The notes under the pieces: generated by a model
What the model was told of the DNA's origin: nothing
The model's database searches: none
Seen by the model: only the letters and a program-made list of their open reading frames with translations
DNA from: an uncultured delta proteobacterium
GTDB lineage: Bacteria > Desulfobacterota > Binatia > UBA9968
Assembly (NCBI GenBank): GCA_963728565.1
Contig: CAVSLC010000023.1
Span: 192,001 to 256,000, forward strand
Direction of reading: 5' to 3'
DNA: 64,000 nt
Made by a program: the position numbers and the translations under genes
Part shown: positions 5,271 through 50,933 of the stretch, in pieces
Layout: every line of letters starts with the position of its first letter
Numbering within the stretch: the stretch's first letter is position 1

Positions 5271-5318
5271 TTCTCAAACGTGGGAAGGGGCGGCATGGTG
5301 TCTTGCAAATCTTGCGAA
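5271..5318. promoter_or_regulatory. Tandem enhancer (bEBP) sites between divergent sigma54 promoters
   Basis: TTCTCA-AACG-TGGGAA (5271) and TTGCAA-ATCT-TGCGAA (5303), 32 bp apart. Confidence 0.65.
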
Positions 5319-5347
5319 GGGGCCTCGCGCCGCCACTCAAACATTAC

Positions 5348-5362
5348 TGGCACATCGGTTGC
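5348..5362 (+). promoter_or_regulatory. sigma54 promoter
   Basis: TGGCACATCGGTTGC, 50 nt upstream of ORF 5412. Confidence 0.85.
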
Positions 5363-5411
5363 GTTTTCATCCTTCTGAAAACGAGCTCAGCATAGGAAGG
5401 ACGCTACGTCG

Positions 5412-5741
5412 ATGGCAGAGAGCCTCCAGTGTATGATGGGCAGTGACACTTCGGTTACGGAACCATTCTTCGCTACTCTGCGCCGAAGTGAACATCTCGA
5501 GCCGGAAAAGAATTTATTGATCGCGATTCTGCGGGATGCGATTCATGATTATCGCAAGTACTGCCGGGCTCGAGATCCGGAGGGGAGGGGACACTTCCGA
5601 GAAGCGCAGCAGTGGATCATGGCAGGCGGTAACAACTGGATTTTTTCTTTCAATAATATATGCGAATTTTTAGGTCTCGATCCGGATTACATTCGTCGTG
5701 GGCTTAACGAGCCGGATGCAGATCGTAACACCAAAAGATAA
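5412..5741 (+). CDS. Conserved-looking hypothetical helical protein
   Basis: EPEKNLLIAILRDAI…FREAQQWI…WIFSFNNICEFLGLDPDYIRRGL; has an SD and its own sigma54 promoter. Confidence 0.75.
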   Translation: MAESLQCMMGSDTSVTEPFFATLRRSEHLEPEKNLLIAILRDAIHDYRKYCRARDPEGRGHFREAQQWIMAGGNNWIFSFNNICEFLGLDPDYIRRGLNEPDADRNTKR

Positions 5742-5774
5742 GTCTCGAACTACTGCAAGCAGTGGCGCAGCAAA

Positions 5775-6587
5775 TCAAGTTCCCTGCGGCCAATAGAGCA
5801 ACAGAGGCACCCCTGCGTGCCGCACGCAAGATGCGGCGATGCTACCCAGTACGACTCGCTTCGCCGCGGCATGGGCATGAGTCGTCATTGCCAGCAATGT
5901 TTCGGGGAGGTCTTTTAGGTACCGACTGAGTGCGTCGCCCGGTTCTCCATGCAGCACTTCCCATTGCGCTTCGATTCTATGAACGGCTTCGATTTCGGCG
6001 GCCAGTCGATGCAGGTAGGACGTTTCGAGAAAATCCGACTCTTGCTCGTGTAACAGCGCCTCGGGACGGTGCACCGGCAACGCCTGGACCAAGAACAGGG
6101 GCGCTGACAATGACCGAGCGGCTCTGACGGCGTACGGCAGTATTTTCTCGGAAAAGGCACTACCGTCCACGGCGGCTGTAACATTGGTAATTTTACTCGG
6201 CGCCTCGCGGTCTTTGTGATGCGCCCCAAGCAAGAGCACGGGTCTCATAGCTTCACGCAGAACCCGGAAAGCAACGCTGCCGATGATCGCTTCGGTCCAT
6301 GCTGTGCGCCCGTGAGTAGTCAGCGCCGCAATCGCGCGCGGCTCTCTTTCGAGCTCTGTTCTTATCGCGGCGGCTGGATCTGGTGATACGACAAAGCGCA
6401 GCTCGGCGCCGTATCGGCGAGCGCATTCCTGCAAATAATCTTCTTCGATCGACTTTTCCGCCGGATCCTGAACGACGCGCAAAAATATCAGCTTGCCCGC
6501 TGTCGCCCGTGTCACGCCGCGCGCCAGCGGAATAATCTGCTCCGCGAGCGAGGAACCGTCCAGGCAAACTATCACTTGCTCAAACAC
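5775..6587 (-). CDS. Universal stress protein (tandem USP domains)
   Basis: VIVCLDGSSLAE…THGRT…GSVA…; AVDGSAFSE…GSIA; GTG start. Confidence 0.9.
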   Translation of the reverse strand: MFEQVIVCLDGSSLAEQIIPLARGVTRATAGKLIFLRVVQDPAEKSIEEDYLQECARRYGAELRFVVSPDPAAAIRTELEREPRAIAALTTHGRTAWTEAIIGSVAFRVLREAMRPVLLLGAHHKDREAPSKITNVTAAVDGSAFSEKILPYAVRAARSLSAPLFLVQALPVHRPEALLHEQESDFLETSYLHRLAAEIEAVHRIEAQWEVLHGEPGDALSRYLKDLPETLLAMTTHAHAAAKRVVLGSIAASCVRHAGVPLLLYWPQGT

Positions 6588-6809
6588 AGTGGCCTCGTCC
6601 TTCGGTCGGCTATCGCTTCATTCATCATAGTGCGGGCGGCTCTGCCAATTGATGGCTGATGGCATTTTTTTGTTAAAGCAACTTCCACTCCACCACGTGC
6701 GCTGCCCCATGCACTCGCCTCCTTGTCGACCGGATGCTAGTGGCCGCATGTTACTTAAGCGAGCGCCATAGTTCTTTCCTTTCGGTGCTCGCTGACTTAA
6801 AAAAAGGCG

Positions 6810-6824
6810 GCAAGAGCCATGCAA
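6810..6824 (-). promoter_or_regulatory. Degenerate sigma54 promoter for USP 5775-6587
   Basis: TTGCATGGCTCTTGC: correct spacing and -12 element, but TG instead of GG at -24. Confidence 0.4.
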
Positions 6825-6851
6825 TTATAGGTTAATAATTAGATCGCTTTC

Positions 6852-6899
6852 TTCGCAATGCTGGGAAGAACGTTCATGCAGGATTCGCACGGATGCAGA
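6852..6899. promoter_or_regulatory. Tandem enhancer sites
   Basis: TTCGCA-ATGC-TGGGAA (6852) and TTCGCA-CGGA-TGCAGA (6884), 32 bp apart; IHF-like AATCAACTGGCTG follows at about 6918. Confidence 0.65.
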
Positions 6900-6938: not shown

Positions 6939-6953
6939 GGGCATGCTTCTTGC
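6939..6953 (+). promoter_or_regulatory. sigma54 promoter for ybaK-like gene
   Basis: GGGCATGCTTCTTGC, 38 nt before ATG 6992. Confidence 0.8.
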
Positions 6954-6991
6954 GCTGTGAGCAATAGGAATCAAGCAGAAGGAGAAAACCC

Positions 6992-7477
6992 ATGCCAATT
7001 ATCAAAAAACTTAAAGACCTCTTCGACGAGACAAAGGTTAGTTACGAAGTCTACAACCATCCGCTGGCGTATACCGCGCAGGAGATCGCTCAGAGACAAC
7101 ACTTCTCTGGTAATGAGATGGCCAAGGTTGTGATGCTCAAGGTGGACGGCAAAATGGTGATGGCGGTGGTTACCGGGAATCAAAAAGTGCACCTGCCTAC
7201 CGCACGCGCAAGCCTCGCCGCCTATGAGGTGAGTTTGGCGACGGAAGACGAGTTTTATTCTAAATTCCCGGGCTGCGAAATCGGCGCGATGCCGCCGTTT
7301 GGGAATTTGTATGGTCTACCTGTTTACGTTGACCCGGCGGTAACCAAGGATGAATGGATTTACTTCAATGCCGGAAACCACGTTCAGACGGTTCGGATCC
7401 GCTATAAGGACTTCGAAAAACTCGTAAACCCACAGGTGGTCCGATTGACTGAGGAGAAGAAACAGCATGCAGCCTAA
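6992..7477 (+). CDS. YbaK/EbsC-family aminoacyl-tRNA deacylase
   Basis: HPLAYTAQEIA…AKVVMLK…GCEIGAMPPFGNLYGLPVYVD…FNAGNH. Confidence 0.9.
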   Translation: MPIIKKLKDLFDETKVSYEVYNHPLAYTAQEIAQRQHFSGNEMAKVVMLKVDGKMVMAVVTGNQKVHLPTARASLAAYEVSLATEDEFYSKFPGCEIGAMPPFGNLYGLPVYVDPAVTKDEWIYFNAGNHVQTVRIRYKDFEKLVNPQVVRLTEEKKQHAA

Positions 7478-7779: not shown

Positions 7780-8000
7780 TCACTGAAGCACTTGGCGAGG
7801 CCGGGGTGACCCGTCGGCTGGCAAAACTAAACGTGCGAATGGCGATCGTGGCGACGCTGCGATCGCGTCAGCAGCACGTTCAGAATCACCATCAATAAGG
7901 ATAGGAGCACGAAATAGAAGAACAGGCTTTCGGTTACCATACTCCACCTCCGCTTCAAGAGTTTCTAGTTGAAGTGAGCGCAAAGCCAATGCCAACCCGC
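7780..8000 (-). pseudogene. Probable degraded USP fragment
   Basis: KPVLLFR…FARLVLPADGSPRPRQVL resembles the USP interdomain region (PVLLVR…FRRILVPLDGS). Confidence 0.3.
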
Positions 8001-8180: not shown

Positions 8181-10760
8181 ATGCCTGTATTGACTGAAGT
8201 CCAACAGAATGTTGAGGCTCCCGTAACCAGGCAGCAACGCGCGCTCGAGGAGTCCGATTTACTGTTACGTCTTTACCGAGCGCTCATCGAGAATCCCGAC
8301 CTATCTTCCGGCCTCCGCGCCGCTCTTGAAATCGTGTGTCAATTTACCGGTTGGGTTGTTGGAACCGCGTGGCTTCCTTCAGACGACGAAACAGAAATAA
8401 GGCTCTGCTCCTCGTGGCATGCAGACGATCCAAAGCTCGCCGAGTTTATTGGCCTTTGCCGGCAGCTGTCGTTTCCCCGCGACGTTGGCATCCCCGGCCG
8501 GGTTTGGCACCGCGGAAAAGATGAGTGGACGCGCGATCTGGCCGCTGAGCCTGCCGAACCGTTCCCTATGGCACCTGCGGCGAAACTTGCGGATCTCAAA
8601 GCCGCCTTCGCGGTTCCGATCACTCACGATGAGGACGTTGATGGCGTGTTGGTGTTCCATGCGCGCGAGGCGAAGGAGGAAGACGGACGTCTAACGCAAG
8701 TCGTTTCCACCATCGCAACCCAGCTAGGATTCGCGCTCCAGCACAAACGGCTCGAAGAAGAACTCTTGAAGCAGCAGGCTTTGGTCCGTCGAAGCCATGA
8801 AAACTTGGAAGAACAGGTTGAGCAGCGAGTGCGGCAGCAGGAGGCCGTAGTCGATCTTGGCCGCCAAGCCCTAGGCGGAGCGGACTTGTCAACGCTCATG
8901 CGCTCGGTTACCGAGTTAGTCGCCAAAACTTTGAGCATCGAGTTTTGCAAAGTGCTGGAGCTGCTGCCCGGGAATGACGCTTTTCTTTTACGCGCGGGGG
9001 TCGGGTGGAGGGAAGGGCTTGTCGGCCAGACAACCGTGAGCGCCGGCACGAACTCACAAGCCGGCTATACGTTGCTCTGCAAAGAGCCGGTGATCGTTGA
9101 AGATCTCCGGAAAGAAGCGAGATTTATCAGGCCGCCGCTGTTGCGTGATCACGCGGTCGTAAGCGGCATCAGCGTCATTATCGGACACAGCGATCATCCT
9201 TACGGAATTCTTGGAGCGCACAGCGCAAAGGCGCGGGCGTTTTCACAAGACGACATTCATTTCTTGCAGGCGATAGCTAACGTGCTTTTCCAAGTTATCG
9301 AACACAATCGCGACTTGGCAGAGATTCGGCGCAACGCCACCTGGCTGCAGCGTCTCATCGATACTACCCAAGACGCGGTTGTTTCCATCGACCGGCGCGG
9401 CTGTATCGTCTTGTTCAATGCCGCCGCGGAACGAGTGTTCGGCTACAGCGCGGACGAGATTGTCGGACGCAAGGTCAATGAACTGATGGCCGAGCCCTAC
9501 GCCACCGAGCACGACGGTTATATTGCCCGCTACGAACGGACCGGCGAGCCACGCGCCATTGGCCGCATCCGCACAGTGGAGGGACGGCGTAAGAGCGGCG
9601 AGACCTTTCCCCTCGAGCTTTCAGTGACGCAAGTCGCGACCGCTGAAAACGAAGAAGTTCACTACGCCGCTTTTATCCGGGATATTTCCGAAGTGAGACG
9701 GGGCCAGGCCTGGTTGCAGAGCCTGATCGAAACAACGCAAGATGCCGTCCTGTCCATCGATCGTCAAGGGCGGGTTGTTCTATTCAATCCGGCGGCTGAA
9801 CGGATATTCGGTTATCCGCGCAACGAAGTTATCGGAGAAAAGGTCAATATGCTCATGGCGGAGCCGTATGCTACAGAGCACGATGAATATATCGCGCGCT
9901 ACGAAAGAACCGGTGAAGCCCGCGCCATTGGCCGGATTCGAACAGTCAGCGCGCGGCGAAGTAATGGCGAGCCCTTTCCCATCGAGCTCTCCGTCACTGA
10001 AATATCAGTAGATCAAGAAGTGCATTATGCCGCCTTCATTCGCGACATCTCGGAGAAAACCAAGTTACAGAACCAGCTGATGGAAACCGAACGGCTGGCT
10101 GCCATCGGCAGCACGGCGGCTAAGATCGGCCATGAGCTCGCCAATCCGCTTAACGGAATGTCCCTGACGATTCAGCTGCTGGAGCAGCGTCTCAGCAGGC
10201 TCAGCGATAGCGCCGGGACTCAATTGACCCCGACTGTGAAAAGACTCAAGGACGAAATCTCCCGACTGCAGAAATTGGTCGGAGAGTTCGCAACAATCTC
10301 GAGAAAAGAAAAATATGTCCTTCGACCGATCAACCTGAAGCAACTAGTCGAAGATATTGTTGACCTACAAGCGCCCCATCTTGCGCAGAGCGGGATAGAG
10401 CTAAAGACTTCCGTACCTTTTGATCTGCCGGTCATCAGGCTCGATAGGGATAAGATGAAGCAGGCTCTGCTCAATCTGGTTAAAAACGCCGGCGAGGCGA
10501 TGCCTCAGGGCGGCAGGATCACCATTGATGCCTTTACGGCGGACGACGCAATCATACTTGAGATTACCGATACCGGAGAAGGTATTCCTCTGGACATCGA
10601 TGCGTTTGAGCCTTTTGTGACCACGAAGGAACAAGGTACCGGGATCGGATTGGTCATAGTTCGGCAAATCCTCGCCGCCCATGATGGAAAAATATCCTAT
10701 CGAAGTAAACCGGGAGAAGGAACTACCTTCCGGCTGGAGCTGCCGCAAGGATTGGGTTAG
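8181..10760 (+). CDS. Soluble sensor histidine kinase GAF-GAF-PAS-PAS-HisKA-HATPase with two FixL-like heme PAS domains
   Basis: No TM segments; two GAF domains; two PAS repeats with VN(E/M)LMAEPYATEHD(G/E)YIARYERTGE(P/A)RAIGRIRTV…FP(L/I)ELSV; H-box IGHELANPL; N, D and G boxes (NLVKNA, DTGEGI, GTGIGL). Confidence 0.95.
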   Translation: MPVLTEVQQNVEAPVTRQQRALEESDLLLRLYRALIENPDLSSGLRAALEIVCQFTGWVVGTAWLPSDDETEIRLCSSWHADDPKLAEFIGLCRQLSFPRDVGIPGRVWHRGKDEWTRDLAAEPAEPFPMAPAAKLADLKAAFAVPITHDEDVDGVLVFHAREAKEEDGRLTQVVSTIATQLGFALQHKRLEEELLKQQALVRRSHENLEEQVEQRVRQQEAVVDLGRQALGGADLSTLMRSVTELVAKTLSIEFCKVLELLPGNDAFLLRAGVGWREGLVGQTTVSAGTNSQAGYTLLCKEPVIVEDLRKEARFIRPPLLRDHAVVSGISVIIGHSDHPYGILGAHSAKARAFSQDDIHFLQAIANVLFQVIEHNRDLAEIRRNATWLQRLIDTTQDAVVSIDRRGCIVLFNAAAERVFGYSADEIVGRKVNELMAEPYATEHDGYIARYERTGEPRAIGRIRTVEGRRKSGETFPLELSVTQVATAENEEVHYAAFIRDISEVRRGQAWLQSLIETTQDAVLSIDRQGRVVLFNPAAERIFGYPRNEVIGEKVNMLMAEPYATEHDEYIARYERTGEARAIGRIRTVSARRSNGEPFPIELSVTEISVDQEVHYAAFIRDISEKTKLQNQLMETERLAAIGSTAAKIGHELANPLNGMSLTIQLLEQRLSRLSDSAGTQLTPTVKRLKDEISRLQKLVGEFATISRKEKYVLRPINLKQLVEDIVDLQAPHLAQSGIELKTSVPFDLPVIRLDRDKMKQALLNLVKNAGEAMPQGGRITIDAFTADDAIILEITDTGEGIPLDIDAFEPFVTTKEQGTGIGLVIVRQILAAHDGKISYRSKPGEGTTFRLELPQGLG

Positions 10761-10832
10761 GATTTTTGGCTGGCTTGGGTATTGCTCTACTTACATCCAT
10801 TGAGGAACTAATCTAAGAATCAGCCTAGCGCA

Positions 10833-10879
10833 TTTGCACAACTAAGATTTTTTTTAAATAGTTTCTCAGAACTGAGAAA
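10833..10879. promoter_or_regulatory. Tandem enhancer-like sites directly upstream of the NtrC-type regulator (autoregulation?)
   Basis: Perfect TTTCTCA-GAAC-TGAGAAA (10862-10879) and weaker TTTGCA-CAAC-TAAGAT (10833), 30 bp apart. Confidence 0.7.
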
Positions 10880-10892
10880 GTGGAAAGCTACG

Positions 10893-12239
10893 TTGACCGG
10901 GACAATACTAGTCGTTGAAGATCAAGAATCGGCGCGTGAAAGTTTAGTCGAGTTATTGAGAGGGGAGGGGTTTGAAGTTCATGCCGCCGCTGACGGCAAA
11001 GCCGGCATTGAGTTCGTCGATCAATACGATCTCGATGTGGTGCTTACCGATTTAGCCATGCCCCACGCCGACGGTATCGCCGTGCTGCGGCACATTCGTG
11101 AGATCTCGCCGCAGACATTGGTAATATTGATGACCGCACATGCTACGGTCGAGACCGCCGTCGAAGCCATCCGTCTCGGCGCCCAAGACTATCTGCTCAA
11201 GCCGCTTATTTTTGAAGATGTGCTGCGCAAAGTGCAGCATTTGATGAACCATCGGAAGCTTGCCTGGGAGAACCAGCTGCTGCGCCGCGAGATCAATACC
11301 CGCTTCAGTTCCGATCGGCCGCTCGGGCGCAGCCAGGCAATGCAGGAAATCGCCCGCTTAATAAAAAAAGTCGCGCCGGCTCCCACCACGGTTCTAATCA
11401 CCGGCGAGAGCGGCGTCGGCAAAGAAGTGGTTGCGCGCACGATTCACGCGCACAGCCGGTTCAGCGATAATGTGTTTCTGCCGGTAAACTGCAGCGCCAT
11501 TCCGGAAAATCTTCTCGAGAGTCAGCTGTTTGGACACGTTAAAGGCTCCTTTACGGGAGCCGTGAGTTCTCAAGAAGGCCTGTTTCAAAGGGCGCGCGGG
11601 GGCACGATCTTCCTCGATGAGATCGGCGAAATGCCGCTGACCCTTCAGCCAAAGCTGCTGCGCGTGCTCGAAGAAAAAGTAATTCTTCCGGTGGGCTCGA
11701 CAAATCCCGTCAAGGTCAATGTGCGCATACTGGCGGCAACCAATCGCGATCTCAATGCCGAAGTGGAAGCCGGGCGCTTTCGCGACGATTTATTTTATCG
11801 TCTGAATGTATTCGAAATCAATATTCCGCCGCTGCGCAAGCGGCTTGACGATCTGCCGGGGTTGGTGGAGCATCTTATCCAGCGCCACAACCAGGAGATG
11901 AACACGACCTATAAAGGCGTCGATAGCGCGACCATGCGGATTCTCATGTCGTTTCCGTGGAAGGGAAACATCCGTGAGCTCGACAACGTTCTGGAGCGCT
12001 CGATGATTCTGGGCGACGGCGAATGGATCAAGCCGTCGGAACTCCCTGGGCAACAAACCGACGGCGGAGAATTCAATTACGAGGATAGTCTCAGCGCGGC
12101 GCTTGATCTCTACGAAAAAAGCCATATCGAACGCACTTTGAATAAAGCCGGCGGCGACAAGATACGGGCGGCCGAGCTCATGGGATTGAGTCTCTCGACG
12201 CTTTACCGAAAGCTCGAAAAACTGGGTATCGAGAGCTAA
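10893..12239 (+). CDS. NtrC/AtoC-family sigma54-dependent response regulator (REC-AAA+-HTH)
   Basis: REC (VVEDQ…TDLAMP…MTAH…KP), Walker A GESGVGKE, GSFTGA (GAFTGA loop), FLDEIGE, RDDLFYRLNV, WKGNIRELDN, Fis-type HTH; TTG start. Confidence 0.97.
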   Translation: MTGTILVVEDQESARESLVELLRGEGFEVHAAADGKAGIEFVDQYDLDVVLTDLAMPHADGIAVLRHIREISPQTLVILMTAHATVETAVEAIRLGAQDYLLKPLIFEDVLRKVQHLMNHRKLAWENQLLRREINTRFSSDRPLGRSQAMQEIARLIKKVAPAPTTVLITGESGVGKEVVARTIHAHSRFSDNVFLPVNCSAIPENLLESQLFGHVKGSFTGAVSSQEGLFQRARGGTIFLDEIGEMPLTLQPKLLRVLEEKVILPVGSTNPVKVNVRILAATNRDLNAEVEAGRFRDDLFYRLNVFEINIPPLRKRLDDLPGLVEHLIQRHNQEMNTTYKGVDSATMRILMSFPWKGNIRELDNVLERSMILGDGEWIKPSELPGQQTDGGEFNYEDSLSAALDLYEKSHIERTLNKAGGDKIRAAELMGLSLSTLYRKLEKLGIES

Positions 12240-14392: not shown

Positions 14393-15166
14393 TCATTGTT
14401 CCTCGGGTGTTGGTTTGTCCGGGGCGATAAAATCTTTCTCTTCTTCGGTGCTCTCGGCTATGTCTTCGGTTCCAGGCGACTCTTGCCCGGCAGGGAGCAG
14501 CTCAGGCGCGGTTTCTTTGGAGCGGGCTTCACGCTCCCATAGCAGCTCTTCCACCTGAATTCGATCTACGATTTCAGTGATACCAAGAACATCTGTCACA
14601 ATCTTCAGCAGGATCTGGTGCTCGGCTTCGCTGGGAAGCGCTCCGGTCAGATAAACAACCCTCTTGCGGCAGACGATCCGCAGCTCTTCGGTATCGATTC
14701 GGCCGTCTTCCTTCAGATGGTCACGAATAACCTGGACCCACTCAGCGTCCTCGAGCGGGCTCAAATCTGGCGGGACCGGCGCGGTTGACGCAATCTCCGG
14801 TTCTTCGGCTGGAGCAGCGCTTGGTTGCTCGTCTCTCGCTGCGCAGTCCGTACAGCGCCGGGTTGCCGGGAGAGCGCGAAGCCGATCCACCGGTATGTAG
14901 TGGCCGCATGCTTCGCAGAGGCCGTAAACACCCGTGAGGATGCGTTGCAGCGCCGCATCGACTTCGCGCACCGCCCGCAAAGTTCTATCATCCAGGTGGT
15001 TCAGCACCCGTGCGGATTGTTCTTCTTGAGCATGCTCCTCCAATTCGCTTTCCCGTTCTGCGGCGATTGATTCCAGGCCCTCTTCGGCTTTTCTAAATGC
15101 TTCCAAGTAATGCTTGCGCTGCTTGCGCAACTCCTCGGCGAAGGTCTCGATAAGATTGTGTTCCAT
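14393..15166 (-). CDS. TraR/DksA zinc finger-BON domain fusion protein
   Basis: YGLCEACG…RLRALPATRRCTDC, then BON-like VVYLTGALPSEAEHQ…VLGITEIVDRIQV and an acidic tail. Confidence 0.85.
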   Translation of the reverse strand: MEHNLIETFAEELRKQRKHYLEAFRKAEEGLESIAAERESELEEHAQEEQSARVLNHLDDRTLRAVREVDAALQRILTGVYGLCEACGHYIPVDRLRALPATRRCTDCAARDEQPSAAPAEEPEIASTAPVPPDLSPLEDAEWVQVIRDHLKEDGRIDTEELRIVCRKRVVYLTGALPSEAEHQILLKIVTDVLGITEIVDRIQVEELLWEREARSKETAPELLPAGQESPGTEDIAESTEEEKDFIAPDKPTPEEQ

Positions 15167-15191
15167 ACATCACCTCTCGCTCATCAAGAGG

Positions 15192-15206
15192 GCAAACTAT
15201 ATGCCA
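15192..15206 (-). promoter_or_regulatory. sigma54 promoter for dksA-BON/CBS
   Basis: TGGCATATAGTTTGC, 25 nt before ATG 15166. Confidence 0.85.
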
Positions 15207-15338: not shown

Positions 15339-15385
15339 TCGTCAGTGGTGAGAAGATTGGCGGCGCAGCATCGCAAAAATGAGAA
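15339..15385. promoter_or_regulatory. Tandem enhancer sites
   Basis: TCGTCA-GTGG-TGAGAA (15339) and ATCGCA-AAAA-TGAGAA (15370), 31 bp apart. Confidence 0.65.
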
Positions 15386-18208: not shown

Positions 18209-18418
18209 AGCTATCTCCGTATGTGAATGCCTTGTCAGCCGGTACCGCATAGCCTTTAGCGCTGTACAAAAGCGCCTCATCAAAGGTTGCGGACCTGCAG
18301 GGAAACGCACGATCTCATCTATCCCCGGATCTGGTCATCACCTAGCCACGTGAGAAAGCCTTGTACGACCTTCAGCAGTCAATCTGTCGCTTTGATGACC
18401 ACTGCTGAAGTCAAATTC

Positions 18419-18433
18419 GCACGGCGCGTGCCA
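18419..18433 (-). promoter_or_regulatory. sigma54 promoter for PRT/kinase
   Basis: TGGCACGCGCCGTGC (GG-N10-GC), divergent from 18570. Confidence 0.7.
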
Positions 18434-18472: not shown

Positions 18473-18519
18473 TTTTCAATTTTGCAGTTTTAGGAACGAA
18501 TTTTTCGCAGTTCTTAAAA
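18473..18519. promoter_or_regulatory. Tandem enhancer sites
   Basis: TTTTCA-ATTT-TGCAGT (18473) and TTCGCA-GTTC-TTAAAA (18504), 31 bp apart. Confidence 0.5.
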
Positions 18520-18569
18520 TGAAATTGACGAAGACCCCAATCGATGGTTGGAGTCTTAGCCGCTCCGCT

Positions 18570-18584
18570 TGGCATTCGATATGC
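18570..18584 (+). promoter_or_regulatory. sigma54 promoter for HPF-CSD gene
   Basis: TGGCATTCGATATGC. Confidence 0.75.
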
Positions 18585-18636
18585 TCCTTTGAAGAATCAC
18601 ATCGTGATGGTCCACTGTAAAACGGGAGGTGCAACC

Positions 18637-19275
18637 ATTAACATTCCAATACAAATTACATTCAAAAACATGCTGGCTTCCGAGCCCATTGAAGCCAACA
18701 TTCGTGACAGAGCAGAAAAGCTGGAGTCCTTCTGCGATAAGATTATGGGCTGTCGGGTACTCGTCGAAGCGCCACACCACCACCATCGCGCAGGGCAGCG
18801 TTACCACGTCCGTATCGATCTCACCGTTCCAGGCCGGGAAATCGCCATCAAGCGTGCACCAAGGCTGGTTACCGCAAAGCCGTTGCGTTCTCAGAAAGAC
18901 GCCAATGGTCTGGAGCTGGAAGAGAGCCGGGAACCGAGCAAATACGCCGTCCATGACGATATCTTATTAGCGATTCGCGATGCGTTCGACGCTGCGCGCC
19001 GTAAGCTTCAGGACTATGCCCGCCGTGAACGTGGAGTAGTGAAGGTGCACGAGGGCTCCCCCCATGGCCGAGTTATCAAAGTTTTTCCGGAAGAAGGTTT
19101 TGGTTTCCTCGAAACGCACGACGGACGGGAAATCTATTTTCACGAACACAGCGTACTGGACTCCGGTTTCGCTGGGCTGAAGGTCGGGACCGAGGTGCGC
19201 TTCGTCGAGGAAGCCGGTGAAAAAGGTCCCCAAGCCAGTACGGTGATGCCGGTCAAGCACCATATGACGAGATGA
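18637..19275 (+). CDS. HPF/RaiA ribosome hibernation factor fused to a cold-shock domain
   Basis: IPIQITFKNM…CRVLVEAPH…YHVRIDLTVPGREI…AIRDAFDAARRKL; CSD GFGFLE…EIYFHEHSV…GEKGPQAS. The SD GGAGG points to an ATT start at 18637 (alternative ATG at 18607). Confidence 0.9.
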   Translation: MNIPIQITFKNMLASEPIEANIRDRAEKLESFCDKIMGCRVLVEAPHHHHRAGQRYHVRIDLTVPGREIAIKRAPRLVTAKPLRSQKDANGLELEESREPSKYAVHDDILLAIRDAFDAARRKLQDYARRERGVVKVHEGSPHGRVIKVFPEEGFGFLETHDGREIYFHEHSVLDSGFAGLKVGTEVRFVEEAGEKGPQASTVMPVKHHMTR

Positions 19276-19566: not shown

Positions 19567-19665
19567 TTCCGACGAATGCTAAAAAAAACCAGTCTTTCTT
19601 CATTGCTGCGATGATCGCACGATGAACTCTTTGATTGCGTGTGATGATTTGGGCATGGCAATTGC
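19567..19665 (+). promoter_or_regulatory. sigma54 promoter with degenerate tandem sites upstream of a short ORF and a USP
   Basis: GGGCATGGCAATTGC (19651-19665); TTCCGA-CGAA-TGCTAA (19567) and TCTTCA-TTGC-TGCGAT (19597). Confidence 0.65.
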
Positions 19666-28655: not shown

Positions 28656-28745
28656 TTCTCAGCAATGATAATTGGCAGCTTTCCTCATGTCATCCATGCG
28701 AACGACACCGCATCATTGAGGAATATCTCCTGGCATATCGGTTGC
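28656..28745 (+). promoter_or_regulatory. Tandem enhancer sites plus sigma54 promoter for HAD gene
   Basis: TTCTCA-GCAA-TGATAA (28656) and ATGTCA-TCCA-TGCGAA (28687), 31 bp apart; TGGCATATCGGTTGC (28731-28745). Confidence 0.8.
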
Positions 28746-36699: not shown

Positions 36700-36746
36700 T
36701 TTTTAATCTTGATATTTTCCACCCATCAATTTCTTAGCGGCGGGAA
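36700..36746. promoter_or_regulatory. Tandem enhancer sites between divergent sigma54 promoters
   Basis: TTTTTA-ATCT-TGATAT (36700) and TTCTTA-GCGG-CGGGAA (36731), 31 bp apart. Confidence 0.5.
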
Positions 36747-36786: not shown

Positions 36787-36801
36787 TGGCACGCTGCATG
36801 C
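36787..36801 (+). promoter_or_regulatory. sigma54 promoter
   Basis: TGGCACGCTGCATGC, 42 nt before ATG 36844. Confidence 0.8.
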
Positions 36802-36843
36802 GGGCTGTGATGTCTGTAAGCGAAGTTCGCCTGGAGGTGTCGT

Positions 36844-37098: not shown

Positions 37099-37344
37099 AG
37101 GCCGCTAATGCAGTCGGCCTGCATGGCGCATTGCCAGTGTGCAAAAATCGTCGTCGGCCCTTGGCCATTGATGAGACGGCAAAACATGCCTCGCGGACTG
37201 GGACCGCTGCATGGATTTCGCACCAATGAGAGAAACAGACCGCGCGATTCGCAAAGGTGATTAAGGTACAGGATATCGCGACGAAAAGTCGCACCGATCA
37301 ATCTCAAATCGAATTCGTCGCCCAATTGAACAGATGATTCCAAT

Positions 37345-37575
37345 CTAGTACGGAAGGGACAGTCCGAGGCTTGCCTTCTGCGCGGGGGTCAAACGGTCCG
37401 CTCTGATATAGCCAAGCTCTTCCAGTCGTTTGATACAGGCATCGCCGTCTTCGCCCACCGGACAGTAACGGAGTTCGTTTGTCTTCACGTTAAGCAACAG
37501 GATTGATGTCGGTCCACAGCTAAGTACCGCATTGCAGATGATAATCGACATGGAAATGCCAAGGGCGTGTTTCAT
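37345..37575 (-). CDS. Small hypothetical exported/lipoprotein
   Basis: N-terminal hydrophobic stretch ending VLSC; 76 aa with two further Cys after it. Confidence 0.5.
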   Translation of the reverse strand: MKHALGISMSIIICNAVLSCGPTSILLLNVKTNELRYCPVGEDGDACIKRLEELGYIRADRLTPAQKASLGLSLPY

Positions 37576-37748
37576 TCGATGGAATTGCGGCGGCTCTCGT
37601 CGTCTCTTGAGCGCGTCCTTATATATGTCCTGCCGATCGAAGAAGCGGAAACCGCGTTCACTTCAAGGTGTGACCGTAAGCCGCTGTGCGCGTCATTCCA
37701 GAAAACAAGCTCGGGTTCTCAGGCAGGTTGTGCACCTGGAACTTCACC

Positions 37749-38922: not shown

Positions 38923-39303
38923 TCACGATTTCGACTGCTTGCTCGGGCGGCCGACTGTGCGAAGACAGGCCGCTGTGTCGATGGACGCCTTTCCAAGATT
39001 GACATAGTCGGCAACCGAGATGCCCTCGAGCCGGGTCGGTTCCTGCCAGTACAAGCTGATGTCGAGTTGAGCGCGCTCGTAGAGCCGGAGCGCATTGATG
39101 GACCTGCCTTCGGATAGGATCTCGCCGCGGTTGGGGTGTATCCTTCACAACCTAAGATCACGTAAGCCCAGTGAGCTCGTGCCTGATCCGTTGGTTCCTA
39201 CCAGGGCGTGAATTTCTCGAGGGTTGATACTAATATCAAGCCTATCGAAAATACTTTGCCCTCCGATCTGGAAGGAAAGATTCTTGACCTGTAATAGTTG
39301 CAT
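38923..39303 (-). pseudogene. SufC/SmsC-like ABC ATPase remnant
   Basis: Manual translation across two shifts: MQLLQVKNLSFQIGGQSIFDRLDISINPREIHALVGTNGSGTSSL/YVILGCEGYTP/RGEILSEGRSINALRLYERAQLDISLYWQEPTRLEGISVADY; Walker A Lys lost, truncated. Confidence 0.75.
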
Positions 39304-42387: not shown

Positions 42388-42720
42388 TCAAGACTCGCCG
42401 GCTCTGATAACGTTTGGGGCGGTCACTTGGTAAAGCTCTCGCTTCGATGATTCCTCCAACAGACCGGAAATCCTTTTCGCCCACGGCTGAAAGTCGAGTC
42501 CTTCTGTGACTGTCTTAATTTGCCGCTCCAGAGTTCCGGGATCGTCTACTTCCTGCTCAAAAACCAAATCCGGAGCGCCCAAGGAACCGAAGTGTGTGCG
42601 CATAACTCGGGCGTTCCGCCCGCCCGCATTTTCTACCCATTTGAGAAGCGTCAGCAGTCCCTCTTCAACTTCGTGGGTCTTTCCAGGCAACGTATGAAAT
42701 GTCAGCCGCGATACATACAT
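42388..42720 (-). CDS. Hypothetical dimeric alpha/beta-barrel (NIPSNAP/ABM-like) protein
   Basis: MYVSRLTFHTLPGKT…VFEQEVDD…RELY; SD AGGAGG; first gene after a sigma54 promoter. Confidence 0.7.
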   Translation of the reverse strand: MYVSRLTFHTLPGKTHEVEEGLLTLLKWVENAGGRNARVMRTHFGSLGAPDLVFEQEVDDPGTLERQIKTVTEGLDFQPWAKRISGLLEESSKRELYQVTAPNVIRAGES

Positions 42721-42765
42721 ACTTTCGCACCTCCTATTTTTCGCTATCCATGCCGAAATCATTGC

Positions 42766-42878
42766 GCAAGGAAAATGCCAAGGCGCCGAAGCAGACGACT
42801 CGCTGCAATCTTTAGCTGAATCCTCATTTTCTTCTCATATTCGCGAAGCAGAGCGTAATTCTTTCGCATATCGATACA
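42766..42878 (-). promoter_or_regulatory. sigma54 promoter and enhancer sites for the archease-rtcB-prs run
   Basis: TGGCATTTTCCTTGC (42766-42780); TTCTCA-TATT-CGCGAA (42832) and half-site TTCGCA (42863), 31 bp apart. Confidence 0.8.
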
Positions 42879-42977
42879 CGAGTGCTGGCGCGTGTAATCG
42901 ATCATTTAGCGATTAACTGGACTGGAGTTTTCCGGTTCGTCACGGTTTATTTTTCAGAAATGAAATAATCTATCGCT

Positions 42978-44690: not shown

Positions 44691-44802
44691 TTTTCACTTC
44701 TGAAAAAAACCGGCGCATCTCTTCGCAGGACTGGAAAAAACTGCTTCGCGAAGTGCGTCCTGACCGTGCAAAGTTCCGGATTTATCATGGCTTGTTTCTT
44801 GC
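44691..44802 (+). promoter_or_regulatory. Tandem enhancer sites plus sigma54 promoter for acsA-pdh operon
   Basis: TTTTCA-CTTC-TGAAAA (44691) and TTCGCA-GGAC-TGGAAA (44722), 31 bp apart; TGGCTTGTTTCTTGC (44788-44802). Confidence 0.8.
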
Positions 44803-44903
44803 GGTTTAGACTGTTTTTGCAGCGCTGACTTGACCAGATTCGGCAGAGACGCGCGTCGGCCGAACAGATCGTCGTAGCATATGTCTCGACCCGAAAGGAC
44901 GCC

Positions 44904-46661
<1,758 letters not shown>

Positions 46662-46703
46662 TGGCAAAGCGCGGCTGGCCTCAGTTCTGAGAAGAAAGGA
46701 TAC

Positions 46704-46920
46704 TTTGACGACGATGGCACGAAGGACGCAGAGGGTTTAGGAAAACAACTGCGAGCTTTGTGCTCATCGTGGTGAAACTGGATTCTTTCATAGAGGATAC
46801 CAAACCCGGACAGGGCGTGACTTACCACTAAGGACACTAACGACACGAAGCACACGAAGATTCGGCAGGAGTTTTATCATTCTCCTCTCCCGTTCATGCT
46901 CTTCGGTGCTTCGCGGCGAC
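46704..46920. repeat. Two REP-like imperfect hairpins built from CACGAAG-type 9-nt units
   Basis: TTTGACGACGATGGCACGAAG…CTTTGTGCTCATCGTGGTGAAA; ACCACTAAGGACACTAACGACACGAAGCACACGAAG…CTCTTCGGTGCTTCGCGGCGAC. Confidence 0.6.
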
Positions 46921-46935
46921 AGGGAGACTTTCTCG

Positions 46936-47931
46936 ATGCCCCGACATGCAAAACAAAAAGCGCAGGCGATCGATCGCGAGCATGCGCTGCATCTGCTCAA
47001 AGAGATGCTGCGCATTCGCCGCCTCGAGGAAAAATGTGTGGAGCTCTACACCGCCGCTAAAATTCGCGGGTTTGTCCATCTCTATATCGGCGAGGAGGCC
47101 GTTGCCGTGGGCGCGATGGGCGCGCTCGAGTCTGAAGATAATATCGTCGCAACCTACCGAGAGCACGGCCATGCACTGGCGCGCGGCATGTCGGCCAACG
47201 CGATCATGGCGGAAATGGTCGGCAAAGTGGAAGGCTGCAGCCGCGGCCGCGGCGGGTCCATGCACCTGTTCGATGCCGCCACGCGATTTTACGGCGGCAA
47301 CGCGATTGTCGGCGGCGGGCTTCCGCTCGCTGTCGGTCTCGCGCTGGCGCAAAAGCTCGCCGGGCGACAACAAATTACCGCCTGTTTCTTCGGCGAGGGA
47401 GCCGTTGCCGAAGGCGAGTTTCATGAATCGCTGAATCTTGCCGCGCTGTGGAAACTGCCGGTGCTGTTTTGCTGTGAGAATAATCTCTACGCCATGGGCA
47501 CGGCGCTATCTCGTTCCGAATCGGAGATCGACATCTGTCTCAAAGCCGCTGCGTTCGAGATGCCGGCGTGGCCGGTGGACGGCATGGATGTCATCGCCGT
47601 CGAAGACGCCACCCGGCGCGCCGCCATCGCCATCCGCGCCGGCGGCGGGCCGCATTTTCTCGAGTACCGTACATACCGCTTCCGCGCCCATTCGATGTAC
47701 GACCCGGAGCTTTACCGCGACAAACATGAAGTGGACGAGTGGAAGAAGCGCGATCCGATTCCGAGCTTGATCGAGTGGTTGAAACAACAGAACCTCTGGC
47801 AGGAGGAAGAGTGGAGCCGCATGGAGGAGGAGGTCGCACACGAAATCCAGCAGTCTGTCGAGTTCGCCGAAGCGGGCCATTGGGAACCGGTGGAAGAGTT
47901 GACGCGCTTTGTTTACTCGGAGGTGCAGTAA
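46936..47931 (+). CDS. pdhA: 2-oxoacid (pyruvate) dehydrogenase E1 alpha
   Basis: [30 protein letters not shown]…ENNLYAMGT (TPP motif), [11 protein letters not shown]. Confidence 0.93.
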
Positions 47932-47938
47932 ATGCATC

Positions 47939-48004
47939 GTTCAAAAATTCAATGTTCAACGTTCAACGTCGCCGCCCCAACCTTGAACTTGGAACCTTTG
48001 AACC
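47939..48004. repeat. Heptamer-unit inverted repeat
   Basis: GTTCAAA/ATTCAAT/GTTCAAC/GTTCAAC … TTGAAC/TGGAAC/TTGAAC between pdhA and pdhB. Confidence 0.65.
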
Positions 48005-48014
48005 GAGACGAGAT

Positions 48015-49010
48015 ATGAACGGGGAAAAAGTAAAAACCACGTATAGAGAAGCGATGCGCGCGGCGATCCGCGATGCGCTGCTGCGCGACCAGCGGGTCTT
48101 TCTAATGGGCGAGGATGTCGGCCGCTATGGCGGTTGCTTTGCCGTCAGCAAAGGTTTGCTCGATGAGTTCGGTCCCGAGCGCATTCGCGACACGCCGCTT
48201 TCCGAATCGGCATTTGTCGGCGCGGGAATCGGCGCAGCGATGGGCGGTGTCAGGCCGATTGTGGAGATCATGACCGTGAATTTCAGCCTGTTAGCATTGG
48301 ACCAGATCGTCAACAACGCCGCGACGATTCTGCATATGTCGGGCGGGCAGTTCAACATTCCACTGGTCATCCGCATGACCACCGGCGCCGGCCGTCAACT
48401 GGCCGCGCAACATTCGCACAGCCTCGAAGGTTGGTACGCGCATATCCCAGGGATCAAGGTGCTCACGCCTGCAACGCTGGAAGACGCCCGCGGCATGCTC
48501 TGGACGGCGCTACAGGATCCCGACCCGGTGCTGATTTTCGAAAATGGTCTGCTCTACAACATGGAAGGCGAACTGGCCGCGGATGCTGGGCCGGTCGACA
48601 TCTCCAAGGCGGTGATTCGCCGTCCTGGACAACATATCAGCTTAATCACTTATGGCGGCACTTTGTTCAAGACGCTGGCGGCAGCGGAAGAGCTGGCGGG
48701 CAACGGCATAGATGCCGAGGTCGTTGATCTGCGGACGCTACGGCCGTTGGATACGGCGACTGTTATCGGCTCCGTAAGCCGCACACACCGCGCCGTTATC
48801 ATCGACGAGGGCTGGCGGAGTGGAAGCATTTCCGCCGAGATCATGGCGCGCATCATGGAGAACGCTTTTTACGAGCTCGATGCGCCGGTTGCGCGGGTTT
48901 GCAGCGTCGAAGTGCCAATGCCTTATCCCAAGCATCTCGAAGACGCGGCGATCCCTCAGGTTCCAGGAATCGTCGCGGCGGCGCGGCGAGTAGTGACCGG
49001 CCATGAGTGA
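48015..49010 (+). CDS. pdhB: 2-oxoacid dehydrogenase E1 beta
   Basis: [32 protein letters not shown]. Confidence 0.93.
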
Positions 49011-50229
49011 ATTTCGCATGCCCTCGCTGGGAGCCGACATGCAATTCGGCACCATCGTCGATTGGCGCGTGAAACCAGGCGACGCCGTCAAAAGGGGCGA
49101 CGTGGTGGCATTGGTGGAAACTGAAAAAGGCGTGATCGAGGTCGAGATCTTCGAAAGCGGTGTCATTGAATCTCTCCTCGTTCAGCCAGGGCGGAAAGTC
49201 CCAGTGGGAACGACCCTGGCGACATTGAGCGGCGATGGCAAGAAGGTGGAGGCACAACCGGCAGCAAAGGCGGCGGTTGCTCCGCCGACCACGGCGGCGC
49301 CGCCCAAAGCCGAGATCGTGCCCGCGCAAGTCGCGGCAGCGGCTGTAGCGGAGGAATCTCTTCGTCTGCGGGTTTCGCCGCTGGCGCGTAAACGAGCGCA
49401 GGAACTCGGCGTCGATCTATCCACTCTGACCGGCACGGGTGGGAAGGGTTCGATTACCATTGCGGACGTTGAACGGGCAGCAGAAAGCGCCAAGACAATT
49501 ACGCCGGCAACTGCGCCTGTAGCGAGCAAGGGGTTGGATCTTACAGCGATGCGCCGGGTGATTGCCACCGCAATGGCGCGGTCGAAGCGCGAAATCCCGC
49601 ATTATTACCTTGCGACGACCATTGATATGGGCAAAGCCTTAGATTGGCTCGACGCAGAAAATGCCAAGCGAGCTGTGACGAAAAGATTGCTCTACTCCGT
49701 GCTGCTCATTCGCGCCATGGCTTTGGCATTGCGCACATTCCCCGAACTCAATGGCTTCTGGATCAACGAGGCATTCAAGCCGGGTGACGGCATTCACATC
49801 GGCATAGCGATTTCTTTGCGCCAAGGGGGCCTGGTCAATCCGGCGATCCACGACGCGGATAAGAAAAGTTTGGAGGAACTGATGGAGAGCTTGCTTGACC
49901 TGGTAAACCGCGCGCGCAACGGTCACCTGCGCAGCTCGGAACTTTCCGATGGTACGATTACGGTCACCAATCTCGGCGAACAAGGAGTCGAAACTGTTTT
50001 CGGCGTGATCTATCCGCCCCAGGTAGCGCTGGTCGGTTTCGGCAGGATTTCGGATCGGCCTTTTGCAGCCAACGGAATGTTCGGCGTGCGGCCAATGCTC
50101 GATGCCACGCTCGCTGCCGACCACCGGGTCAGCGACGGTCATCGCGGCGGCCGCTTTCTTTTGGCCATCGACCGTTGGCTGCAGGAACCGGAAAAGCTGT
50201 GGGAAAGACCGGCGTTCCAACAATCCTGA
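49003..50229 (+). CDS. pdhC: Dihydrolipoamide acyltransferase E2
   Basis: Lipoyl domain (MPSLGADM…VETEKG), PSBD (VSPLARKRA…GTGG.G.I), catalytic DHRVSDG. Confidence 0.92.
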
Positions 50230-50266
50230 TTAGGATTGAAAGAGATCGGTAGAGAGGGGCACTAGA

Positions 50267-50512
50267 ATGACGGAGGCCGAGATCAAAAATATCGTCCGGC
50301 AAGCATTGGGCAACATCGCGCCGGAGGTCGATTTCGATTGCATCGATCCGGCCAAAGATCTGCGCGATCAGAGCGACTTAGATTCGGTCGACTTCTTAAA
50401 TTTTGTGATCGGCCTGCATAATGTTTTAGGGGTGGATATTCCCGACATCGATCTTCCCAAGCTCGCAACCGTGAATGGCTGCATTGCCTATCTTGCTTCT
50501 AAAGTCGGGTAA
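50267..50512 (+). CDS. Acyl carrier protein (phosphopantetheine-binding)
   Basis: 81 aa, acidic; LRDQSDLDSVDFLNF…LGVDIP…TV…YL. Confidence 0.85.
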   Translation: MTEAEIKNIVRQALGNIAPEVDFDCIDPAKDLRDQSDLDSVDFLNFVIGLHNVLGVDIPDIDLPKLATVNGCIAYLASKVG

Positions 50513-50559
50513 ATCGGTAAATCTTGAAAGATTTTTGGCATGCAGGCGAACTGTACGCA

Positions 50560-50780
50560 GGAGGCGGCGCAGGTCTTGCCGGCGTACTCACGAACTTCGA
50601 CACGGTTGTGGCCAATATCACGGTAAGCAGCCGGGCTTATTTGGCAACGATTACCCACTCGATCCCGGGTACCAGCGTTCAATGCTTGGTGGAGAAAGGA
50701 AAGGCGGAGGAAGTTTTAATCGAGCACGCGTCCGCCGACACAGATGCGCTGATCGTCATGGCCACAGACGGCAGCTCGGA
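50560..50780 (+). pseudogene. USP fragment
   Basis: YLATITHSIPGTSVQCLVEKGKAEEVLIEHASADTDALIVMATDG matches an internal segment of USP 51545. Confidence 0.7.
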
Positions 50781-50832
50781 TCCAACGCTGGCTCTTGAGA
50801 TAAGCGAACCGGCAGGCGTGGGCAGATGCTGG

Positions 50833-50933
50833 CTCGCAGAACTGCGAGAACGCACGGAGCATTTTTTCAATTCTGCGAAGTGGCGCCTAAAAGTTAATTG
50901 ATTAGGGGGCTATCTTGGTGGCACAGGCGTTGC
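50833..50933 (+). promoter_or_regulatory. Tandem enhancer sites plus sigma54 promoter for hsp20-USP operon
   Basis: CTCGCA-GAAC-TGCGAG (50833) and TTTTCA-ATTC-TGCGAA (50864), 31 bp apart; TGGCACAGGCGTTGC (50919-50933). Confidence 0.88.

Follow-up and report, generated by a model that had tools for sequence, protein, structure and literature searches.

A conserved tandem palindromic motif with a near-fixed 31-bp pitch at sigma-54-type promoters in an uncultured Binatia bacterium, and its probable NtrC-family binder

A 64-kb stretch of the genome of an uncultured Binatia bacterium (contig CAVSLC010000023.1; the whole stretch is referred to as the window) contains a recurring pair of imperfect palindromes of the form TTYKCA-N4-TGMGAA, the two members of which are located about 31 bp apart. 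A preliminary description, made from the letters alone, had listed 12 such pairs between positions 5271 and 50879, placed most of them next to -24/-12 promoter elements and proposed that they are bound by the regulator encoded at 10893-12239. Is this motif real, what binds it and which genes does it serve? The recurrent tandem motif is real, statistically strong and conserved. From its sequence context, it is best read as the enhancer (upstream activating sequence, UAS) of one NtrC-family sigma-54 activator, most probably the regulator 10893-12239, a reading to which we assign a probability of about 0.7.

The motif and its pitch

All 24 listed 16-mers are present at their positions. Compared on the + strand with TTYKCA-N4-TGMGAA, two of them have no mismatch, seven have one, nine have two and five have three, while a single one (42863) has five, which agrees with the earlier remark that some members are degenerate. 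In the window, which has a G+C content of 55%, the exact pattern gives 3 strand matches (2 sites) against 0.08 expected. With up to one mismatch, 23 strand matches (14 positions) were counted against 4.0 ± 2.3, and with up to two mismatches 75 against 43.6 ± 7.2; none of 100 shuffles reached the count at any of these levels.

Since the pattern of the preliminary description might be self-fulfilling, a palindrome-constrained motif finder with a fixed site number was written and applied, blind to that pattern, to 40 intergenic regions (14.2 kb). It returned TTCTCAGTACTGAGAA at 10, 16 and 24 sites, corresponding to TTCTCAG-N2-CTGAGAA, with log-likelihood ratios of 181.8, 255.2 and 343.1, compared to maxima of 165.4, 226.1 and 307.0 in dinucleotide shuffles. 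The palindromic search of the intergenic regions, which had been suggested as a check, hence recovers the motif and beats 14 out of 14 shuffles. The matrix agrees with the earlier consensus; in addition, G is preferred at position 7, as is C at position 10. T2, C5, A6, T11, G12 and A15 of the 10-site matrix are each found in at least 19 of 20 half-site readings. The site is dyad-symmetric, approximately 16-18 bp long and fit for a dimeric helix-turn-helix (HTH) protein.

Two other search modes behaved differently. Expectation maximization with a free lambda ended in a TTCTC...GAGAA composition motif of low information content, comprising over 300 sites, and was replaced by the search with fixed site number. 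Enumeration of exact palindromic 5-mer dyads with gaps of 0-12 missed the motif because of its degeneracy, and no dyad exceeded the shuffle maxima. After masking of the motif, no second palindrome was found above the null in these regions (156.3 and 218.3, null ranges 152-165 and 209-226), and the finder without palindrome constraint returned CTGGCATATCGGTTGC, the sigma-54 promoter, which served as a positive control.

The pitch was evaluated in two ways. When the 13 sites scoring 12 bits or more were used as anchors, partners reaching at least 6 bits were found at an offset of 31 bp (six cases), 30 bp (one) and 32 bp (one), and offsets from 10 to 120 bp were otherwise empty save for 23 (one), 77 (one) and 119 (two). 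When a pair was defined by one site of at least 10 bits, a partner of at least 5 bits and an offset of 30-32 bp, the window contains nine pairs, compared to a mean of 0.05 (maximum 1) in 200 shuffles; the remaining 3-bp offset bins between 18 and 122 bp hold 0-2 pairs each. A scan of genome contigs yielded one true ortholog locus (L001, from a Candidatus Binatia metagenome-assembled genome, MAG) and 79 other activator loci, the latter fetched because conserved AAA+ peptides dominated the search patterns. These 79 unrelated loci (1.33 Mb) were used as a negative control and do not contain a single pair. The proposed spacing of 30-32 bp, mostly 31, is thereby borne out: as listed, seven of the ten pairs are spaced by 31 bp, two by 32 bp and one by 30 bp, which places at least two sites on one face of the helix, integral turns apart. 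The inter-site spacers of 14-16 bp are mutually unrelated (identity 0.324, control 0.315 ± 0.014), so that the fixed pitch represents a constraint and not the trace of a duplicated cassette.

The sites are given below with the promoters and genes assigned to them. Bits are leave-one-region-out scores. Centres refer to transcription starts that are predicted, having been set by convention 12 nt past the C of the -12 GC.

5271..5318, pair 5271/5303 between divergent promoters 5208-5223 (-) and 5348-5363 (+); 13.1/5.0 bits, solid; centres -81.5/-113.5 to one promoter, -95.5/-63.5 to the other
6852..6899, pair 6852/6884 upstream of promoter 6939-6954 (+) of the YbaK/tRNA_edit gene 6992-7477; 16.2/9.6 bits, solid; centres -105.5/-73.5
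10833..10878, pair 10833/10863 downstream of the TGGCTT-N6-TTGCT element 10771-10786 (+); 11.8/22.6 bits, solid; centres +43.5/+73.5
15339..15385, pair 15339/15370 upstream of promoter 15191-15206 (-) of the DksA-zinc-finger/BON gene 14393-15166; 10.0/16.5 bits, solid; centres -166.5/-197.5
18473..18519, pair 18473/18504 between promoters 18418-18433 (-) of phosphoribosyltransferase and AAA_33 genes and 18570-18585 (+) of the HPF-cold-shock fusion gene; 11.9/13.9 bits, solid; centres -73.5/-104.5 and -115.5/-84.5
19597..19612, single site upstream of promoter 19651-19666 (+) of the Usp gene 20065-20973 and an MFS gene; 11.9 bits; centre -72.5
28656..28702, pair 28656/28687 between promoters 28557-28572 (-) of a DUF2267 gene and 28731-28746 (+) of the HAD/HerA-like gene 28863-30602; 13.2/8.1 bits, solid; centres -117.5/-148.5 and -93.5/-62.5
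36700..36746, pair 36700/36731 between promoters 36594-36609 (-) of BON and CBS genes and 36787-36802 (+) of the 84-aa open reading frame (ORF) 36844-37098; 6.9/7.7 bits, moderate, exactly 31 bp apart; centres -124.5/-155.5 and -105.5/-74.5
37217..37263, orphan pair 37217/37248, 31 bp apart; 10.4/6.4 bits, solid
42832..42847, single site upstream of promoter 42765-42780 (-) of a small ORF, archease, RtcB and PRPP synthetase genes; 11.2 bits; centre -85.5
44691..44737, pair 44691/44722 upstream of promoter 44788-44803 (+) of the acetate-CoA ligase gene 44904-46661; 17.7/14.7 bits, solid; centres -115.5/-84.5
50833..50879, pair 50833/50864 upstream of promoter 50919-50934 (+) of the Hsp20 gene 50978-51481, three tandem-Usp genes, an adenosine-kinase-like gene and a further Usp gene; 7.6/19.7 bits, solid; centres -104.5/-73.5
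46678..46693, single site upstream of promoter 46715-46730 (+) of the 2-oxoacid dehydrogenase E1/E2 genes 46906-50229; 15.7 bits; centre -55.5
62198..62213, weak single site upstream of promoter 62099-62114 (-) of a CBS gene and a P-type ATPase gene; 9.9 bits; centre -117.5
42951..42966, strong lone site 119 bp away from 42832, no promoter assigned; 17.0 bits
13680..13695, strong lone site within the NAPRTase coding region, at its 3' end, with no promoter; 15.4 bits
27960 and 54312, lone sites; 13.2 and 11.4 bits

The 12 pairs of the preliminary description are accordingly reduced to nine solid ones and a moderate one (36700/36731), and two entries are single sites: 19567 (3.2 bits) and 42863 (-4.6 bits, five mismatches) were rejected as partners of 19597 and 42832. 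The sites at 46678, 42951, 27960, 13680, 54312 and 62198 had not been listed before. A search for partners at 28-34 bp gave none for these six or for 42832. Site 10863 has the highest score in the window, and its pair ends 15 bp ahead of the TTG start codon of the regulator. Site 5303 is better read as CTTGCA-N5-TGCGAA, as seen from the alignment with the ortholog locus. Pair 50833/50864 was not part of the motif training set, because it is located inside ORF 50524-50901 (+). This ORF (125 aa) has no Pfam match, contains both sites, extends to the Hsp20 promoter and is probably not a gene.

Sigma-54 promoters and helical phasing

The exact promoter consensus TGGCAY-N5-TTGC occurs eight times in the window (0.28 expected), and seven of the eight matches have a motif site upstream. 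Allowing one mismatch, 24 matches were found against 10.0 expected. A loose scan that required 9 or more matches out of 12 shows no enrichment, with 37 hits in the window and 20-37 in mononucleotide shuffles. The claim that the pairs lie close to -24/-12 elements holds for 10 of the 12 listed loci (two of them being in fact single sites), which have their centres 62-198 bp upstream of a GG-N10-GC element. It does not hold for 10833/10863, which is located downstream of such an element, nor for 37217/37248, which lacks a promoter. Five of the pairs are found between divergent promoters (5208-/5348+, 18418-/18570+, 28557-/28731+, 36594-/36787+ and, less surely, 6677-/6939+).

The centres of the promoter-proximal sites are -62.5, -63.5, -72.5, -73.5 (three times), -74.5, -81.5, -84.5 (twice) and -85.5, with more distant ones at -117.5, -124.5 and -166.5. 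They group near -63, -74 and -85, one helical turn apart. The helical phasing gave a Rayleigh R of 0.77 at 10.5 bp for 12 regions (simulated p = 0.0018, the period scan being allowed for).

Two promoter-like elements have no motif site upstream, namely the exact match at 7980-7994 (-) and a one-mismatch match at 39011-39025 (-) before the PGA_cap gene; they may belong to another activator or be chance matches. The orphan pair 37217/37248 is situated in a 1.3-kb stretch (36433-37748) with short ORFs only, in which a convincing gene or Rfam match is absent. A TGGCA...TGC sequence nearby was rejected as a promoter, since its spacing, read by eye, is GG-N11-GC. Promoter 18570-18585 is positioned inside the listed ORF 18544-19275, so that the true start of the HPF-cold-shock protein must be farther downstream. 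Similarly, the listed ATG (42762) of the small ORF 42388-42762 (-) is upstream of the transcription start predicted for promoter 42765-42780, and the in-frame ATG at 42720 behind a GGAGG is the likely true start.

The regulator and the question of the binder

The window encodes one two-component pair, formed by the following proteins:

8181..10760 (+), sensor histidine kinase, GAF-GAF-PAS-PAS-HisKA-HATPase (Pfam)
10893..12239 (+), NtrC-family sigma-54 activator, receiver + AAA+ + HTH_8 (Pfam Sigma54_activat 1.5e-69, Response_reg, HTH_8)

The response regulator contains Walker A (GESGVGKE) and Walker B (FLDEIGEM) motifs, a GSFTGA loop and a C-terminal Fis-type HTH. The AAA+ sigma-54 interaction domain is present, and the loop variant retains F and T. 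The protein does not reach the NCBIfam equivalog cut-offs of AtoC (431.7, cut-off 714; the best), NtrC (397.6, 558.6), ZraR (376.6, 760) or RtcR (313.9, 650). Its closest solved structures by sequence match are those of Aquifex NtrC4 (PDB 4l4u) and NtrC1 (1ny5). At least 8000 protein matches were obtained; the closest named ones are 'Candidatus Binatia' MAG proteins, and the identity to the 120 matches listed is 80-95%. No other transcription-factor DNA-binding domain was detected in the 88 ORFs scanned (65 + 23), the sole other nucleic-acid-binding match being the cold-shock domain fused to HPF.

The ortholog locus L001 encodes a regulator 79% identical to the 10893-12239 protein, with a nearly identical HTH segment, which fits a shared motif. 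By the same pair definition, L001 contains three pairs, all at syntenic positions and kept at 30-31 bp:

351/381 in L001, between divergent promoters ahead of the Hsp20 gene and the ortholog of a 109-aa ORF; counterpart of 5271/5303
2549/2580 in L001, between the promoters of the HPF and YbaK-like orthologs; counterpart of 6852/6884
9939/9970 in L001, behind TGGCTTCGCTATTGCT and just ahead of the regulator start; counterpart of 10833/10863

In alignments of both loci, the half-sites and the -24/-12 elements are kept, and the spacers and flanks have diverged. The gene order differs, HPF having another neighbour in L001, and the same gene families keep a pair. The layout at the regulator gene of L001 (9886 / 9939 / 9970 / 10001) matches that of the window, where the pair 10833/10863 follows TGGCTTGGGTATTGCT (10771-10786). 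The downstream pair is roughly in phase with the upstream pairs (+43.5/+73.5 compared to -63.5/-73.5, modulo 10.5). It could activate from downstream or could equally act as an autorepressing roadblock; relocated NtrC sites and Caulobacter FlbD are precedents for sites downstream of the promoter.

The case for the 10893-12239 protein as the binder of the motif is circumstantial, yet its parts agree: no other transcription factor was recognised in the window, and the best site is located at the gene of this one, an arrangement conserved in L001. NtrC-family activators bind as one dimer per dyad, assemble an AAA+ ring upon phosphorylation and contact the sigma-54 holoenzyme by DNA looping. By analogy, each 16-bp dyad would bind one dimer via the C-terminal Fis-type HTH, and two dyads three helical turns (31 bp) apart would bring two dimers to one face of the helix. 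Phosphorylation of the receiver by the kinase 8181-10760 would then allow the AAA+ ring to assemble on this dimer platform and to reach, by DNA looping over 60-200 bp, the closed holoenzyme of sigma-54 at a -24/-12 promoter, resulting in the open complex. A pair between divergent promoters could drive both directions. The strict phasing and the short distances fit looping that depends on the helix face. The identity of the binder, the dependence of ring assembly on phosphorylation and oxygen as the signal, discussed below, are what we infer.

Several observations weigh against this reading. The sigma-54 contact loop is GSFTGA and not the canonical GAFTGA, and no sigma-54 (rpoN) domain is encoded among the ORFs of the 64-kb window. 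The pair at the regulator's own gene is positioned downstream of a promoter-like element, which is atypical, and the promoter scan and inspection of the sequence revealed no canonical -24/-12 element in range of pair 37217/37248. Several strong sites are unpaired (42951, 46678, 27960 and 13680 in a coding region). The promoters used in the phasing test were picked by a relaxed match to the consensus (9 or more of 12), and their transcription starts are predicted. At the phosphoribosyltransferase promoter of L001, the only sites are two weak ones (6.4 and 5.8 bits) separated by 58 bp, and the co-occurrence of regulator and motif rests on two genomes. Furthermore, an activator encoded outside the window could be the binder.

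This last point leads to the rival of greatest weight, which we nevertheless consider unlikely: the sigma-54 enhancer is real but is bound by an activator encoded elsewhere, and the local regulator binds other sites or the pair at its own gene only. The window being only 64 kb of a genome, and the regulator belonging to such a large family, this would be conceivable. It conflicts with the regulator being the only transcription factor recognised in an island with at least 15 target promoters, with the position of the strongest site at the regulator's own gene in both genomes, and with the absence, in the 40 intergenic regions, of a second palindromic motif which the regulator might use instead. 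Still less probable is that the motif is the operator of a protein that is not an activator (a repressor, a CRP/FNR-like dimer or an architectural protein), the activator then working from other sites or unbound in solution. Many dimeric repressors and CRP/FNR-type proteins have sites of this format, a 16-bp dyad with a 4-bp centre, and pair 10833/10863 is situated in a transcribed leader, as expected of a roadblock repressor. The positions from -62 to -198, the three-turn pitch, the sharing by divergent promoters and the phasing to -24/-12 elements are hallmarks of activator sites instead, and a gene for an operator-binding regulator of this kind is absent from the scanned ORFs of the window.

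That the motif is due to chance, to the AT-rich composition of intergenic regions or to remains of a duplicated promoter cassette is refuted by the results given above. This explanation could draw on the degeneracy of many members (2-3 mismatches), on the way in which some had been located, by inspection of the sequence at the expected offset, and on the high background at up to two mismatches (43.6 expected). It is contradicted by the blind search, which recovered the motif above all shuffles, by nine pairs where 0.05 were expected and none in the 1.33 Mb of control loci, by the unrelated inter-site spacers and by the conservation of the pairs in a genome with a 79% identical regulator.

Kinase, target genes and comparison with known systems

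The first PAS domain (PAS1, approximately residues 387-515) of kinase 8181-10760 matches the FixL haem domains in the PDB (E 6e-29). Its sequence EHDGYIARY aligns with RHDSYISRY and EHDGYLQRY of FixL (1dp6, 1d06), and the histidine, the haem ligand of FixL, is kept; by alignment, the domain is thus a FixL-type haem-PAS with the proximal histidine. PAS2 resembles the haem-PAS of DosP/EcDOS (E ~1e-15). The kinase as a whole is not a FixL equivalog (NCBIfam FixL 333.3 bits, cut-off 850); a FixJ partner is absent, the partner being the NtrC-family activator.

According to Pfam, the window is rich in stress and maintenance genes, including at least seven Usp genes, several CBS-pair and BON proteins and two DUF2267 proteins, in addition to the following:

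4721-5149 (-) and 50978-51481 (+), two Hsp20 genes
14393-15166 (-) and 3868-4293 (-), two DksA/TraR-type zinc-finger proteins
18544-19275 (+), S30AE/HPF ribosome-hibernation domain and C-terminal cold-shock domain in one fused protein

Both DksA/TraR-type genes are located behind sigma-54 promoters served by the motif, and one of them is fused to a BON domain. Archease, RtcB, phosphoenolpyruvate (PEP) synthase, acetate-CoA ligase, a 2-oxoacid dehydrogenase E1/E2 set, NAPRTase, PRPP synthetase, a PGA_cap protein and a P-type ATPase are encoded as well. The acetate-CoA ligase 44904-46661 was assigned with 939 bits in NCBIfam (acetate--CoA ligase, cut-off 729). Putative targets of the motif comprise Hsp20, Usp, CBS, BON, DUF2267, HPF, DksA-like and RtcB/archease genes, and further those for PEP synthase, acetate-CoA ligase, 2-oxoacid dehydrogenase and P-type ATPase.

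This set of approximately 15 promoters and 45 genes suggests a dormancy-like regulon for hypoxia or energy stress. Its control by oxygen or redox state, proposed because the FixL-type haem-PAS coincides with an overlap in gene families with the DevR/DosR and OsdR regulons, has in our estimate slightly less than even odds. With somewhat more reserve, the 60-kb island may be viewed as a sigma-54-wired counterpart of the DosR regulon, in which a FixL-like haem-PAS kinase would sense falling oxygen and act via one NtrC-type activator and phased tandem enhancers on at least 15 promoters of Usp, Hsp20, CBS, BON, ribosome-hibernation, RNA-repair and central-carbon genes. The same survival genes would have been joined to another transcription machinery by convergent rewiring. 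If so, it would be one of the largest clustered regulons of a single activator.

In its architecture, the system is textbook NtrC-like, with an uncharacterised activator, an uncultured lineage and an unusually large clustered stress regulon. The enhancer at enteric glnAp2 consists of two strong NtrC dyad sites centred near -140 and -108, approximately 32 bp apart. Tandem dyads about three turns apart upstream of a -24/-12 promoter are common to both systems, as is a receiver-AAA+-HTH_8 regulator with a histidine kinase. The site of the window, TTCTCA-N4-TGAGAA, differs from the NtrC consensus TGCACC-N5-GGTGCA, the sites are nearer to the promoter (proximal centre mostly -63 to -85), the NtrC equivalog cut-off is missed, and the targets are stress and not nitrogen genes. 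ZraR of E. coli has its sites between the divergent zraP and zraSR sigma-54 promoters, comparable to the use of one site set for two divergent sigma-54 promoters at 5271, 18473, 28656, 36700 and probably 6852. The ZraR structure 1ojl matches the regulator (E 1e-77); motif, signal and regulon differ and the ZraR cut-off is missed. NtrC1 and NtrC4 of Aquifex aeolicus (1ny5, 4l4u) are the best full-length solved relatives (E 7e-111 and 6e-104). They have the same three domains, and the receiver is likewise joined to the AAA+ domain by a helical linker, which keeps the unphosphorylated dimer inactive in the Aquifex proteins. The likeness is one of sequence only, and the DNA sites and regulons of the Aquifex proteins are unrelated to those of the window. 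With rhizobial FixL/FixJ, the system shares the FixL-type haem domain as first PAS of the kinase; it differs by a sigma-54 activator in place of the LuxR-type FixJ and by two extra N-terminal GAF domains in the kinase.

The resemblance to DosR is one of regulon content and not of mechanism. NAPRTase, PGA_cap, RtcB, P-type ATPase and an HPF-like protein are families also represented in the DosR regulon, and the DosS and DosT sensors are GAF-GAF kinases. Rv2626c-type CBS-pair proteins match at E 9e-9. The regulon content is similar at the family level to that of mycobacterial DosR/DevR and of OsdR, as the targets named for DevR in one study include USPs and heat-shock proteins, and those named for OsdR of Streptomyces include USPs and pyruvate phosphate dikinase (PMC5069765). 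The window motif differs from the GC-rich palindrome of the OsdR and DevR sites listed there (PMC5069765). DosR/DevR is a NarL-type regulator at sigma-70-type promoters, in contrast to the sigma-54 activator of the window, and orthology of the regulators is not implied. A NarL/LuxR-type regulator with a GC-rich palindrome of 16-20 bp, as in DosR/DevR, is hence not what was found here, the regulator being a sigma-54 activator with another motif.

Literature searches on sigma-54 combined with USP/Hsp20 or with DosR (supplements excluded) did not retrieve a description of this system. Searches on FixL or haem-PAS kinases together with sigma-54/NtrC-type activators, USP or hypoxia returned nothing, and neither did those on Binatia with sigma-54; as far as searched, the regulatory element is undescribed for this lineage. 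The words of the motif retrieved eukaryotic C/EBP papers only. Passages on the Desulfovibrio sigma-54 regulome, located by term search, contain no similar motif (PMC4641369). Enrichment of sigma-54 promoters at UspA genes is stated for Planctomycetia in passages of another study (PMC12316311).

The regulator, which is abundant and highly conserved in an uncultured soil lineage, is thereby provided with a cis-element and a regulon that can be tested, and the position weight matrix combined with the 31-bp rule could be used to annotate the regulon in MAGs. With its fixed pitch, phasing and bidirectional use the element is unusually clean, which makes it a good natural system for the study of sigma-54 enhancer geometry. 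If the link to oxygen is true, it would point to a route by which a non-sporulating soil bacterium enters a low-energy state, and the Usp/Hsp20/CBS survival set would be under sigma-54 in one lineage and under NarL-type control in another. Clusters of activator and Usp/Hsp20 genes in Acidobacteriota would then use motifs of their own. In five Acidobacteriota MAG loci (L045, L049, L036, L055 and L065), activators 40-43% identical to the window regulator adjoin genes for Usp, Hsp20, PEP synthase, CBS and P-type ATPase proteins. Another GC-rich palindrome, of the GGAA..TCC kind, was seen by eye upstream of sigma-54-like promoters of these loci; a crude regular expression for GGAA..TCC did not discriminate between loci.

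Other features of the window touch the motif less directly. Rfam and tRNA scans of the window gave no matches. The stretch 22544-25659 appears decayed: an FBPase_3 ORF spans only profile positions 160-360 of 361, and fragments of a pyruvate kinase barrel are distributed over three consecutive ORFs (23381-23593, 23600-23860 and 23894-24208), followed by approximately 1.4 kb (24209-25659) without any ORF counted as a gene. These fragments are pseudogenes or frameshift errors. The P-type ATPase at 57834-61296 (-) is broken into two overlapping ORFs (59761-61296 and 57834-59825), for which a frameshift is likely. At the start of its N-terminal part there is a PTS_EIIA_2 domain, which is an unusual fusion.

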